Positions 33,100 through 44,801 of a stretch of 64,000 nucleotides of DNA are shown here, piece by piece. The number at the start of each line of letters is the position of its first letter. Positions within the stretch are counted from its first letter, which is position 1. The translations under genes were made by a program, and so were the position numbers. Below the pieces are notes generated by a model that ran no database searches, had not been told where the DNA came from, and saw only the letters and a list, made by a program, of their open reading frames with translations. The stretch is from an uncultured Ruficoccus sp. (GTDB taxonomy: Bacteria > Verrucomicrobiota > Verrucomicrobiia > Opitutales > Cerasicoccaceae), in NCBI GenBank assembly GCA_965140785.1, contig OZ223489.1, positions 50,373 to 114,372 on the forward strand, in the 5' to 3' direction.

Positions 33100-33330
33100 A
33101 TTTCAGGCAAAACTCATAAGCGCCGGCGGGCCGCCCTTCTGGCATTTTTACCAGTTCACGCCGTCGCCGTGAGCCTCGCAACGGTAAATTATTTTTTCTT
33201 GTCCACGAGTTATTCACAGCAGGGCATGCCCTGCGGCCCCAGACCGGTGGCTGCCCCGAATACGAGGTTCCAGAAGTAACCAATAGATAGGGTCACGCCG
33301 CGTTCTCTCACCTGCACACGACGTTCGCCT

Positions 33331-33365: not shown

Positions 33366-33476
33366 GCACTACCGAAACTTTTGGGGGCGGGAGGGGTTAC
33401 ACGTCGTGTGAATAATGCTCTTGCCAGCCCGCTTCCGGCTTGGCTGCCGACCCGGACCATGCCTACAGTATCTGCA

Positions 33477-41185: not shown

Positions 41186-41237
41186 CCAGCAATAATTCCA
41201 TCACGCACCCACCGTCAGCCGGATGTGGTTGAGGGCG

Positions 41238-41595
41238 TTGCTCGTGGAGACGGCTTTGCCGTCCAGCTTGATCCGATTGCCGATGAGATGGATGTGCTCG
41301 TAATCCGTGTCGTAGTGATTAACCGCTACAAACTGCTCAAAGCCATAGTCGTCGGCTATCTGCTGAGCGAAGGTAGCCCTTTGAGCGATTCGCCCGTTTT
41401 TAAAGAGAATGCCAGATGGGCGACGGGCTTCTTGCAGCGGGAGTTCAGACCGGCAAGCTGGCCAAACTCGACAATGATGCCCTCGGGGTCCGTAGCGGAA
41501 AGGTTGCCGCCGACAATCTCCGGGCCTTTGGTCGGTTTCATGGCATAGCCCACGACTCGACCGAAGGATTCCCGATAGTTGATCCGGGCAATCAT
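41238..41595 (-). pseudogene. MobA/VirD2-type relaxase, frameshifted and truncated
   Basis: MIARI..FGRVVGY..PVAHLAFSL..GE, then in another frame FVAVNHYDTDYEHIHLIGNRI (HUH), then ends. Confidence 0.85.
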
Positions 41596-41843
41596 AGCCG
41601 CCCTCCTTTCTCTTGCCCAAGCAGGCTGGCCCGGATTAATGCCAGTTGTTGCCGTAGCTCGGCTAGCGTTTCCAGCACGCGCCCTGAGTTCGGACTAGCC
41701 TCGCTGATATGACAGAGGTGAGTAAGCTGGTTGAGGTTAGCCGCCACCTTGGACAACGCCCGCCACTGGTCCCCATTGATTGTTGGGATGGCCGGGCTCA
41801 CCTGCACGTGGGACGCCAAGGCGGCGTCACGAAGGAAGGTGCT
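41592..41843 (-). pseudogene. MobC relaxosome accessory protein, N-terminally truncated
   Basis: FLRDAAL..IPTIN..LSKVAANLNQL; overlaps the relaxase start. Confidence 0.8.
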
Positions 41844-41907
41844 GTGAAGAGAACCGGATATACGAGTAGGCGTTTTTCATGTTTTCAGTCATCATGCTTG
41901 TAGGCAT
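41827..41907 (-). pseudogene. Serine recombinase N-terminal stub
   Basis: Hand translation MPTSMMTENMKNAYSYIRFSSQHLPS*; YxRxS catalytic motif; TATAAT just upstream. Confidence 0.6.
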
Positions 41908-42087
41908 ATTATAAGAATACGCTCGCAAAAGCTCGCTGCCCCGGATGCCGTTGGAGTTGAAACGCGAAAACCCATGAGCCGCGAATGGCACTGATGCAAA
42001 GCTAAGAAAAGCATCTGTGTCTGTCAGCGTAATCCTCGGTTAATTTCCCGGCCATCCACACAAAGGTGAAGAGACCTTTGCTTATCC

Positions 42088-42132
42088 AAAAAACACAAAG
42101 GCCCCCCGCAGCCGAAGCTACGGAGGGCCCTT
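42088..42132 (-). terminator. Intrinsic terminator of the large ncRNA
   Basis: 16-bp stem with C(UUCG)G loop and G-U pairs valid only on the minus strand, then GUGUUUUUU. Confidence 0.85.
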
Positions 42133-43135
42133 GAAAAGTGGGAGTGGGCGTTCGCCACGCGCTCTTCCCCGATTGACGACATTAGGCGCTCTTGGCCCCG
42201 GAGGGGGGGCAGGCTGTCGTCTCCCCGACGCTATTCCCGTTGGCATCGTACGGGTCGGCGGGCTCATAGCAGGCCCGTCAGAGAGGTTGCCCTCTCTGAG
42301 ATTCTCGGGTGAGGCCTTTCAGCGCGGTTCGGCATCGTCCCCGTCGGGACAAATCGCTCGCCGCACCAGGCCGAGGTGACGCTGTCACGCCGCCTTGGCC
42401 TTGTCTCCGGGAGGTCGGCCTCCGAGCGCGAAGGCTCGGAGCGTTGGCCCCTCGGTTACGGGTCTTGCCTCTTAGGTCCTGCCTTGCGGCCCGGCGGGTC
42501 CACAGCCTTGTACGGGGCCGCTTGCCGCCGCCGGTCCAACTCCTTTTCAGGGGAATTGGCCGGGGACATCCCTCAGGAAGCATTTCGCGCCAGACAGCGC
42601 CGTCGAAGCGGTTTTACGCTCCGCCGACGTTTTCCTGTGTGTCGGAACAATCGCGTGCGCCTTGCCCGGCGCCCGCTGTCCCGCGCCCCGTCAGCCGACC
42701 TTTTCGCGTTCCCGGAGAGGAACCTTTTGGCGACGTGCCGTCGCCGGTCGTTGGCACTGTGGGGGACTGGCTCACGGCAGCTTCTCTTCGACCCTCTTGG
42801 CAGGCGCAGGGGTCGCCGTGTATCAGCCAAAGACCCGGATACGGTCCGAGGCTTGACTCGAGTCGCGCGCCTTATCCGTTCGGCCGCTCCTCGCCTCCTT
42901 CCTTTCTTCGTGGTGGTAACCCGCAAGGTCACGACACCCGCGGGCGGAAGGGGTGACATATGCCTGAACAACCCATCGCAAGGATGTGCTGCCAGGGGCC
43001 GGAACCGCCAGTTCAGTTTCCGACCTTTGCCCGGTTACCCGGGATTATCCTAGGGATGATGGAGGTCTCCTTCTATCGTCAGGGACAAGCCCGGACGCGA
43101 ATCGGAGAACCTTTTTCCCGTTCTGTCAAAGAACG
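42090..43135 (-). ncRNA. Large (~1.05 kb) structured ncRNA candidate, possibly MISL-like
   Basis: Promoter, boxA-like motif and terminator bracket a hairpin-dense region with GNRA tetraloops on the minus strand and no credible ORF. Confidence 0.7.
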
Positions 43136-43140
43136 AGGAT

Positions 43141-43170
43141 AAGGTAAATGCAACAAACGCCTCCGGTCAA
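43141..43170 (-). promoter_or_regulatory. Sigma70-like promoter of the ncRNA
   Basis: TTGACC-N18-TACCTT with a T-rich tract upstream. Confidence 0.6.
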
Positions 43171-43416
43171 ACAAAAAAATTGCATAAATGCCTGAAAATC
43201 ACATACTTGTGAATAACTTTAACTCCAAGAAAAACGCTCCTGTTAACAAGTCTGTAACCGATTGAAGGGGATTTTATTACGAATGTTACGACGGTGAACA
43301 TCTTCAGAGGCTCTAAAATGGCCCCGGTGAATAAGTTCGTAAGTCGCGTTTGAGGTGTTTTTGGGGAGCGGTTTTTTGGACAAAGCGGAGCATTTTAACG
43401 AAATAGGCCCATGAGT

Positions 43417-43490
43417 TTAACCACGGATTACACGGATGGACACGGATAGGCTGGAAATAATCTGTGCCCATCCGTGAAATCTGTGGTTAA
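43417..43490. repeat. 9-nt-periodic inverted-repeat element
   Basis: TTAACCACGGATTACACGGATGGACACGGAT ... ATCTGTGCCCATCCGTGAAATCTGTGGTTAA. Confidence 0.8.
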
Positions 43491-43517
43491 AATAGGCGTC
43501 TAGGCGACGCAATGGCC

Positions 43518-44801
43518 TCAAATCGCGTCCTGCAGGCAGCTTCCGCCGGGCACGCCGTCGGCGTAGAGGCGGGCGCAGATTTCGCCCACCAAATAGATCG
43601 ACCCGGCCACCACGAGAGCCTCGTCCGGGCCGCCCGCCGCGCACTGGCCGGGTGCGGGGAACAGCTCCTCCACCGTGCTGGCGCGGACCGTCCCCTCAAA
43701 ATCCGCCGGGATAAACGTCCGCAACCGCTCCGGGGTGAGGGCGCGGGGCTGGTCCGGCTGGAGCAGGACGAGCCCGCCCGCGTGGCGGGCCATGACCGGG
43801 AGCAGCGCGGCGGCGCGCTCTTCGCCGAGAATGCCGGTCAGCAGAACCGGCTTGCGTCCGGTCCGGGCGACGAGCTGGGAAAGGTTGTTCTCCAAGGCGC
43901 GGGCGCCCTCGGGGTTGTGCGAGCTGTCGAGGATGAGCAAGCGACCGTCGCGCAGCTTGACCCGCTGCCAGCGCCCGGCCCAGTCCACCTCTGAGAGCGC
44001 GGCCTCGGACACGGCCTGAGTGACGGGGAAGCGCCCTTGCAGCACCCGCACCACGAGCGAGGCGACGGCGGCATTGCGGCGCTGGAAGTCGCCTTCGAGG
44101 TTCGTCTCGGGGAAGTTCGCCTCCTCCCCGAAAGTCTCGCGCACGCTGTGAACCACGCACCCGCGCTCAGTCGCCACCGCGCGGATGACCGCCTCGGCCT
44201 CCGGCGGCAGGCAGCCGATGACAACCGGGCGGCCCGGCTTGATGATGCCCGCCTTTTCCCCGGCGATAGCGGCCAGGGTTTTGCCCAGAATGTCGGTGTG
44301 GTCCAGCCCGATCGACGTGATGACGGAGACCTCGGGATCGACGACATTGGTGGCGTCCAGCCGTCCGCCCAATCCGGTCTCGAAAATGGCCACCTCCACC
44401 TGCTCGGCGGCGAAATGCAGCATCGCCATGCCCGCCATGAACTCGAAAAAGGTCGGGTGGTCCTGCGCATCGGCGGAGGCAAGTTTTTCGCCCACCGGGC
44501 GCATCTGCGCCACATAGGCCTCAATCTGCGCATCGGTAAGCGGCTGGCGATTGACCTGAACCCGCTCGCCCAGCCGGATCAGGTGCGGCGAGGTAAAGAG
44601 CCCGGGGCGGTAGCCGGCGCGGCGGTAAATGCCCTCCAGCATGGCGCAGACCGAGCCCTTACCGTTGGTCCCGGCGACGTGGATAACCGGGTAACGCCGC
44701 TCAGGATGCCCGAGGGCTTCGGCAAAGACCGCCATGCGCTCGAGGCCGTACTTGGAGCCGCGGTTGCGCAGGCCGTAAAGGTAGCGTTCCGTCTCGGTCA
44801 T
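43518..44801 (-). CDS. folC: Folylpolyglutamate/dihydrofolate synthase
   Basis: HVAGTNGKGS, FTSPHL, ETGLGGRLDATN, EKAGIIK. Confidence 0.95.
   Translation of the reverse strand: MTETERYLYGLRNRGSKYGLERMAVFAEALGHPERRYPVIHVAGTNGKGSVCAMLEGIYRRAGYRPGLFTSPHLIRLGERVQVNRQPLTDAQIEAYVAQMRPVGEKLASADAQDHPTFFEFMAGMAMLHFAAEQVEVAIFETGLGGRLDATNVVDPEVSVITSIGLDHTDILGKTLAAIAGEKAGIIKPGRPVVIGCLPPEAEAVIRAVATERGCVVHSVRETFGEEANFPETNLEGDFQRRNAAVASLVVRVLQGRFPVTQAVSEAALSEVDWAGRWQRVKLRDGRLLILDSSHNPEGARALENNLSQLVARTGRKPVLLTGILGEERAAALLPVMARHAGGLVLLQPDQPRALTPERLRTFIPADFEGTVRASTVEELFPAPGQCAAGGPDEALVVAGSIYLVGEICARLYADGVPGGSCLQDAI

Follow-up and report, generated by a model that had tools for sequence, protein, structure and literature searches.

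A MISL RNA gene with a family-specific inserted domain, scoring below the Rfam gathering cut-off, in an uncultured Ruficoccus

A 64,000-nucleotide stretch of DNA from an uncultured Ruficoccus sp. of the Verrucomicrobiota (contig OZ223489.1, positions 50,373 to 114,372; termed here the window) carries on its minus strand a transcription unit of ~1.05 kb, 43135..~42088, which is free of open reading frames (ORFs) and has its own promoter and intrinsic terminator. This is almost certainly a single-copy gene for MISL RNA, a large structured non-coding RNA with the Rfam accession RF03079. The best overall explanation, in which good confidence is placed, is of a MISL gene whose product is a trans-acting, fold-dependent RNA and whose transcription is linked to DnaA. 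An earlier reading made from the letters alone (the sequence-only reading) had described a stand-alone, strand-specific, highly structured RNA of ~1045 nt, and that description is correct. Of its proposal of 'a MISL-like RNA or a new class', the MISL part stands and the new-class part falls; its further suggestion of an undescribed system is not borne out, as the family is already in Rfam. The locus belongs to a catalogued family and is not a new class. What is new here is the family-specific inserted domain with the sub-threshold score that results from it, the conserved 5′ hairpin with the full predicted transcript boundaries, and a quantified enrichment of DnaA-box-like sites together with metatranscriptome evidence. 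(The source of the MISL family is reportedly the 2017 survey of 224 candidate structured RNAs by Weinberg et al., the main text of which lacks the name 'MISL'.)

The RF03079 model aligns without truncation over its entire length (positions 1–751 of 751) to minus-strand 43050..42147, with a score of 258.5 bits and an E-value of 2.9e-77 when cmscan is run in E-value mode, and only a minority of the model pairs are flagged as non-canonical in the match. The curated gathering cut-off is 274.6 bits, an operational threshold and not a biological feature. The cmscan comparison that the sequence-only reading had proposed does give MISL at full length, yet only in E-value mode and under that cut-off. 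At E ≤ 10, cmscan of 41800–43400 yields seven matches, of which MISL alone is significant; the other six have E-values of 2.3–6.8, are far under their own cut-offs and include none to GOLLD, ROOL or OLE. The genome (4.36 Mb searched) carries one MISL copy. 6S RNA, RNase P RNA, tmRNA and signal recognition particle (SRP) RNA were each found elsewhere in it, the RNase P RNA with a score of 216.7 bits and separate from the MISL locus. MISL is therefore an additional RNA in this organism and not a universal one in disguise.

The shortfall in score is shared by most MISL copies of the taxonomic family to which the window belongs. A homologue from the same genus scores 277.5 bits, which is over the cut-off, while the other MISL copies of the family score 239–274 bits, and five of the six family copies are under it. 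In a spot check of 20 representative MISL loci, 16 passed and the four failures were other expanded or divergent forms. In the window copy, cmscan set an insertion before CCUGAGGGA rather than after it, with the loss of 11 model positions, and the 16-bit deficit is most plausibly due to this misplacement together with the penalty for the insertion itself. All the invariant core blocks are present, including UAAGAGGCAAGACCCGUAA, GCCUCAC, CCUGCUAUGAG and GCGUCGGGGAG, and at 121 positions the window RNA bears the residue common to at least 95% of 77 homologues. These positions include AAGAGGCAAGACCCGU, CCUCAC, CCUGCUAUGAG, GCGUCGGGG, GCGCCUAAUG and GUGGCGA, and 51 of them are unpaired in the consensus. 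If the RNA were of a new class merely resembling MISL, a score under the gathering cut-off, an empty default scan and ~97 nt lacking a counterpart in 71 of 77 MISL RNAs would be readily accommodated. However, with the model matched from 1 to 751 at E 2.9e-77, a same-genus homologue at 277.5 bits, every invariant block in place and the extra sequence confined to an insertion in one loop of the shared core, such an origin is very improbable; convergence is implausible given 121 positions conserved at the 95% level.

Homologues, which the sequence-only reading had suggested seeking, were found as full-length matches in 15 of 41 related genomes (8 of them over the cut-off). From 104 loci, 96 distinct MISL sequences were obtained, of which 77 are full length (742–1047 nt). 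Their alignment (E-INS-i, with RNAalifold for the structure) gives a consensus of 173 pairs which the window sequence fits; the variable regions were aligned without awareness of structure, and covariation there is probably underestimated. Canonical pairs occupy 88.7% of the cells, against 37–44% when the partner is shifted by 1–3 columns (this percentage is flattered, as the structure was read from the very alignment on which it is scored, though the margin is nonetheless large). Pairs changed on both sides number 130, against 84–103 in the shifted controls, and extra canonical pair types 481 against 262–350; many helices use 5–6 pair types. As judged from this alignment, the core helices covary strongly. 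RNAalifold also proposes two long-range pairings, UCACC/GGGGA and CCUGAG/CGUCGGG, between invariant blocks; these are 98% canonical, with zero covariation.

Length variation among the homologues is confined to a few peripheral sites, and the window RNA differs from most of them at one of these. At RNA positions 480–576 (window 42571..42475, minus strand) there is an inserted domain of 97 nt. Of the 77 homologues, 70 have just 3 nt at the corresponding site and L090 has 4 nt (together 71 of 77), but the length is 89–98 nt in four species of the window's genus and 150–156 nt in representatives of two sister genera (L010 and L013). Expansion here was found, among the 77, only in the window's own family. 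The insertion occupies an internal loop of the core, at which a long-range helix is divided into a GGG half and a GAGG half. In the model this helix is made of GAG/CUC and GAGG/CCUC, and the former half has become GGG/CCC in this genus, a compensatory change. The insert is predicted to fold as a multi-helix domain closed by GUCC/GGAC, and it contains the GCC-GCAA-GGC hairpin (42490..42481) that the sequence-only reading had picked out. Compensatory changes within it are seen among the four genus members: CGGCGG/CCGCCG in place of UGGCGG/CCGCCA, and GCGGCC/GGCUGU in place of GUGGCCU/AGGCCAU. In this family a domain of 89–156 nt can thus be taken up by a core loop whose length is elsewhere set at 3 nt, and acceptance of so large a domain marks the loop as solvent-exposed for future three-dimensional models.

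Other stable elements named in the sequence-only reading are present as described, all on the minus strand: the hairpin CCCGGG-UAAC-CCGGG at 43044..43029, UCAGAGAGG-GCAA-CCUCUCUGA at 42299..42278 and UCCGAGC..GCUCGGA at 42440..42421. For the 904-nt core the calculated minimum free energy is −428.2 kcal/mol on the minus strand (z −3.75) and −416.4 kcal/mol on the plus strand (z −1.72), each relative to 20 shuffles; the sequence is thus predicted to fold more stably than expected by chance, and the more so on the minus strand.

The MISL region has ~62–68% G+C, with A+T-richer flanking spacers. Stop-free frames of 246 and 218 codons run antisense and one of 153 codons sense, and the ORF list shows ORFs of 215 and 225 amino acids in the region. 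These could be taken as signs of a protein-coding region or of a degraded pseudogene. But long spurious frames are to be expected at this base composition, and across 11 homologues neither the strand, nor the frame, nor the position of the longest stop-free frame is conserved (it has 246 codons, antisense, in the window, 131 codons in L009 and 93 in L010). The five ORFs overlapping the region have no match to any Pfam family at E ≤ 0.1, and the substitutions in the helices are compensatory. The chance that the region is coding is negligible, and the absence of a credible ORF noted in the sequence-only reading holds.

The order of elements in the unit is promoter, 5′ hairpin, leader, conserved core of ~750 nt, 3′ tail and terminator. 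The promoter is the one pointed out in the sequence-only reading, with TTGACC (43170..43165) as −35 element, an 18-nt spacer and TACCTT (43146..43141) as −10 element. In all four species of the genus TTGAC and TAnnnT are kept, with a spacer that varies, and many other MISL loci and lineages have TTGAC at ~36 nt before the 5′ hairpin. The weakness of its −10 element kept the promoter at 43170..43141 out of the results of a generic sigma-70 scan. The hairpin-spaced TTGAC and the conservation of both elements within the genus make it most likely that transcription starts at or just before the 5′ hairpin, at ~43135.

The 5′ hairpin itself lies upstream of the start of the Rfam model and is outside it. 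In the window it is GUUCUUUGACAGAAC (43120..43134, minus strand), with the 4-base-pair stem GUUC/GAAC and the loop NUUGANA. Its general form is GUUCNUUGANAGAAC (GUUC-N-UUGA-N-AGAAC), of which only the stem and the loop sequence UUGA are constant. The strict motif is present in 44 of the 77 full-length loci and a relaxed one in 73, from 38 to 206 nt ahead of the model start (84 nt in the window). The 4.36-Mb genome has a single occurrence of the motif, against an expectation of 0.30. Between the hairpin and the Rfam core is a lineage-specific leader (43051..43119), which holds the small hairpin GGGCUUGUCCC and is conserved within the genus, with a change of GGG/CCC to CAGG/CCUG in L011. [At 43119–43100 the AGAAC 3′ arm of the 5′ hairpin can pair alternatively with a downstream GUUCU (AGAAC-GGGAAAAAG-GUUCU). 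The alternative is available in three of the four genus members, where it gives two mutually exclusive 5′ hairpins; L009 is without it.]

At its other end the core (42147..43050) is followed by the 3′ tail CACUCCCAC and the intrinsic terminator (together 42086..42146). The UUCG-loop terminator reported in the sequence-only reading is indeed there: a terminator scan gives a stem at 42133..42096 of 17 pairs, 11 of them G-C, with the UUCG loop and then the T run TGTTTTTTGG. In the homologous loci compared, the core gives way to a tail motif (CACNCCC or GUCCCAC) and then to a hairpin that is rich in G+C and has a T run, the terminators being 10–15 nt past the core (the exceptions are L002, whose sequence ends there, and L015, which has no hairpin within the 75 nt displayed). 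With start and end placed in this way, the transcript is ~1.05 kb.

Upstream of the promoter is the DnaA-box-like site TTATTCACA (43208..43216, minus strand), 82 nt upstream of the 5′ hairpin, and farther up is a degenerate second such site, TTGTTAACA (43249..43241, minus strand). Sites of this kind are widespread at MISL loci. In the 150 nt before the hairpin, exact boxes (TTWTNCACA) were found in 37 of 73 loci, 40 boxes in all, at a density of 3.65 per kb against 0.11 per kb in 290 kb of flanks. They are 51–116 nt upstream of the hairpin; almost every one is TTATTCACA, always in the same orientation and between −71 and −92. When one mismatch to TTATTCACA is permitted, between −150 and −40, 62 of the 73 loci have 102 sites (two or more in 32 loci), at 12.7 per kb against 0.30 per kb in the flanks, an enrichment of about 43-fold; the loci are interrelated, and such counts overstate the independent support. 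The comparison nevertheless shows clear position-specific conservation of TTATTCACA-like sites across orders. The 9-mer TTATTCACA has 16 exact copies in the 4.36-Mb genome, of which one is ~25 nt upstream of the dnaA start codon. The same word is inside an oligonucleotide with two DnaA boxes, from another bacterium, employed in electrophoretic mobility shift assays (EMSA; PMC1888806). From these features DnaA would be the protein that recognizes the putative sites.

A cluster of such boxes could also belong to a replication origin. That interpretation was rejected: MISL is 156–563 kb from dnaA in four near-complete genomes, and no 400-nt segment of the genome has three or more strict boxes. 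In three of these genomes (3.8–5.8 Mb) the distance from dnaA is 156–281 kb, ~4–7% of the chromosome, and in the fourth (2.6 Mb) it is 563 kb (measurements were in G001, G007, G098 and G039). In three of the four, a small sample of related genomes, the gene is placed toward the origin; an origin-proximal bias typical of highly expressed genes may be involved. Elsewhere in the window an exact pair of TTATTCACA sites in opposite orientation, 33210–33218 on the plus strand and 33407–33415 on the minus strand and so ~200 nt apart, falls in an ORF-poor gap that begins at ~32935. Another inverted pair, with 16 nt between its members, is at G000:C43:72532/72557. The inverted pairs, the dnaA site and the MISL sites may outline a small regulon of one DNA-binding protein.

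RNA libraries from several habitats contain MISL RNA. Part of the stretch was found in 24 sequencing runs, 21 of which are recorded as RNA; these are metatranscriptomes of salt marsh, hypersaline lake, marine, rhizosphere, sediment and other origins, with shares of the sampled words of 0.13–0.37. Contigs from all four of the RNA runs taken further (from four studies) align to 42138..43117, several with no mismatches, but library contigs cannot show transcription, strand, ends or level, and carry-over of DNA could contribute to them. Depth is zero in the bins 41700–42126 and 43164–43500 in all four runs, and the uncovered parts carry no evidential weight. An 868-nt contig of depth 159, and pieces at depth 2800–2900, match the conserved blocks only and represent the MISL RNAs of different organisms. 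Two contigs from separate studies, each aligned whole, have their ends at 43111 and 43117; this hints, weakly at best, that a 5′ end is near. MISL would be an abundant RNA.

Upstream of the MISL gene, and 380 nt away on the same strand, is a folC-like Mur-ligase gene (43518–44801, minus strand); accD is also upstream. Downstream, adjoining the terminator and again on the minus strand, are an ORF of the MobC family (41592–41819) and a truncated fragment of a MobA/VirD2 relaxase (41201–41620), which look like the remnant of a mobilizable element. From this arrangement the region might be supposed to be part of a neighbour, either as a long 3′ untranslated region or leader belonging to the folC-like gene or as an RNA from the remnant with MobC and relaxase. 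Yet a conserved promoter and a strong terminator belong to the unit itself, MISL is present once per genome, and the downstream synteny with three relatives in the genus stops at the MISL terminator. Moreover only 9 of 96 loci have folC upstream, and the neighbours in other lineages are unrelated genes. An origin as an appendage of a neighbouring gene is accordingly very unlikely, about as remote as a new class of RNA. No conserved neighbour or partner gene was found among the 96 loci; the largest neighbour cluster is in 17 of them and is bound to lineage. A gene for a PALP enzyme and then rho are downstream in 12–17 of the 96, and an L25-S6-L9 ribosomal-protein cluster in 14. That synteny tracks lineage fits a vertically inherited, independent gene. 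Nor does the RNA have the arrangement of a cis-regulatory leader or riboswitch: the terminator comes after it, and the downstream genes vary both between lineages and within the genus. [The spacer between the folC-like gene and the MISL promoter contains, at 43416–43492, a dispersed repeat of ~70 nt with the sequences CACGGATGGGCACAGAT and ATCCGTGTCCATCCGTG; at least 11 partial copies of it (22–71 nt, 86–100% identity) are on other contigs.]

MISL is restricted to Verrucomicrobiota. A scan of 185,579 species genomes for two blocks of the core motif gave 83 stretches, and 76 of the 80 listed titles were recognized by name as verrucomicrobial, with one checked in the taxonomy. The names include Opitutales, Verrucomicrobiales, Methylacidiphilales, Pedosphaera, Limisphaerales and others. 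The remaining titles are three of 'Candidatus Moanabacter', which is absent from the taxonomy used, and one labelled Blastochloridaceae. Loci identical to those of relatives in the same order bear the labels Opitutales or Puniceicoccaceae. Among genomes sampled across the phylum 9 of 151 have a match, and within the family of the window 6 of 16 do, one of them over the cut-off; 14 control genomes had none. Two assemblies of metagenome-derived genomes (MAGs; L033/L077 and L034/L054) each have two identical MISL copies at separate places, which may be true duplication or an artefact of assembly, and elsewhere there is one copy per genome.

What does such an RNA do? It would act in trans through its tertiary fold rather than as a message, a cis-regulator or a simple antisense partner, a mode of action suggested by the 121 conserved positions (51 of them unpaired) and by the finding of no ORF, no cis target and no partner gene. 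This is put forward tentatively and is given somewhat less than even chances. The RNA would most likely have the form of the core of a ribonucleoprotein (RNP), or else be self-assembling or catalytic, and peripheral expansions would be tolerated around a fixed core as they are in RNase P or rRNA. Its transcription would be tied through the DnaA-box-like sites, across the phylum, to DnaA and so to replication and growth status. RNP, ribozyme and multimer modes are inseparable by sequence data. A role as RNP core or scaffold is a possibility to which a rather low likelihood is given, though one higher than that of either of the two alternatives to it. In the first of these MISL would be a ribozyme, the ~750-nt core of which forms an active site where invariant unpaired nucleotides of the multi-helix junctions carry out chemistry on an RNA or small-molecule substrate. 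Its size and complexity are typical of ribozymes, 51 unpaired positions are conserved at the 95% level with the expansions peripheral to a fixed core, and large complex bacterial non-coding RNAs are often catalytic, as stated under 'Large IGRs' in PMC5737381. On the other side, no known ribozyme family was among the cmscan matches at E ≤ 10 in 41800–43400, neither a conserved substrate gene nor a processing site can be discerned, whole genera have lost the RNA, and GOLLD, ROOL and OLE are RNA-only complexes for which the abstract of 10.1101/2024.12.08.627333 reports no catalysis; a ribozyme is thus unlikely. Those three RNAs provide the analogy for the second alternative, by which MISL would be an RNA-only homo-oligomeric cage or scaffold. 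RNA-only multimers have been described for them (same abstract), and MISL resembles them in size, is rich in GNRA-type loops and is highly abundant in RNA libraries. But it is chromosomal, single-copy, vertically inherited and not associated with phage, unlike ROOL and GOLLD, and homo-oligomerization is rated a little lower again than catalysis.

Several points tell against the explanation favoured here, of a MISL gene with a trans-acting product and DnaA-linked transcription. As to identity, a default Rfam scan of the whole window reports no family, and the window copy is ~16 bits under the gathering cut-off. As to distribution, MISL was not found in 10 of the 16 genomes of the family, and in one genus of that family it is in none of six, five of which are 96–99% complete; since it is missing from so many it must be dispensable or replaceable and is not universally essential. 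The library contigs, besides the limits given for them above, stop 18–24 nt before the predicted start. The 5′ motif may be conserved as a DNA operator rather than as an RNA hairpin, and another regulator with a similar motif would fit the TTATTCACA sites equally well. The mode of action is argued from anatomy alone, and a search of the literature found no functional experiment on MISL, the one relevant item being a chemical-mapping example in Ribonanza; the accession RF03079 also turns up in an unrelated genome paper.

MISL is among the few large, intricately folded bacterial RNAs still without a function. The RF03079 cut-off misses expanded forms (five of the six family copies and four of the 20 representatives), and annotation pipelines therefore under-report the RNA. 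The predicted transcript exceeds the model by a phylum-wide 5′ hairpin and a terminator. The DnaA-box-like sites and the presence in metatranscriptomes are the first testable handles on regulation and abundance. A bolder proposal, for which only a slim chance can be claimed, is of a phylum-wide, DnaA-controlled, abundant RNA machine (a ribozyme or a self-assembling RNP core) with a dedicated 5′ hairpin and a functional insert module. If this were true, an RNA machine would couple the status of replication initiation to a cellular process in Verrucomicrobiota, the 5′ hairpin would serve specifically for recognition or stability, and the inserted domain would be a new module at a core helix, for example a binding platform, and not neutral padding.

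In relation to known systems, OLE RNA (RF01071) is the conserved, abundant, chromosomal structured RNA, ~600 nt long, of one bacterial group, and its genes adjoin conserved genes for partner proteins. MISL is like it in being large, conserved, chromosomal and restricted to a group, but there is no match to the Rfam OLE model, no conserved neighbour and the phylum differs. ROOL and GOLLD often occur in the setting of a phage or prophage. MISL shares with them the character of a large ornate bacterial RNA with many covarying helices, but again there is no Rfam match, and its neighbourhoods are chromosomal, of a housekeeping kind and follow lineage. That ROOL and GOLLD form RNA-only multimers is known from cryo-electron microscopy (cryo-EM; abstract of 10.1101/2024.12.08.627333).

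A comparison of a different sort can be made with RNase P RNA, not as a relative but in evolutionary pattern. MISL is missing from many relatives of the organisms that have it, and RNase P RNA is encoded separately in the genome, but both have a fixed core with lineage-specific peripheral expansions and both are abundant, stable and single-copy. The closest comparison is with the MISL family of Rfam itself. The window copy differs from it in scoring ~16 bits under the cut-off with a 97-nt structured domain, and its predicted transcript extends past the RF03079 model by ~85 nt on the 5′ side (hairpin and leader) and ~60 nt on the 3′ side (tail and terminator). It agrees in the alignment of all 751 positions, in the conserved helices and the invariant junction sequences, and in being a single-copy, stand-alone gene with a terminator, limited to Verrucomicrobiota.

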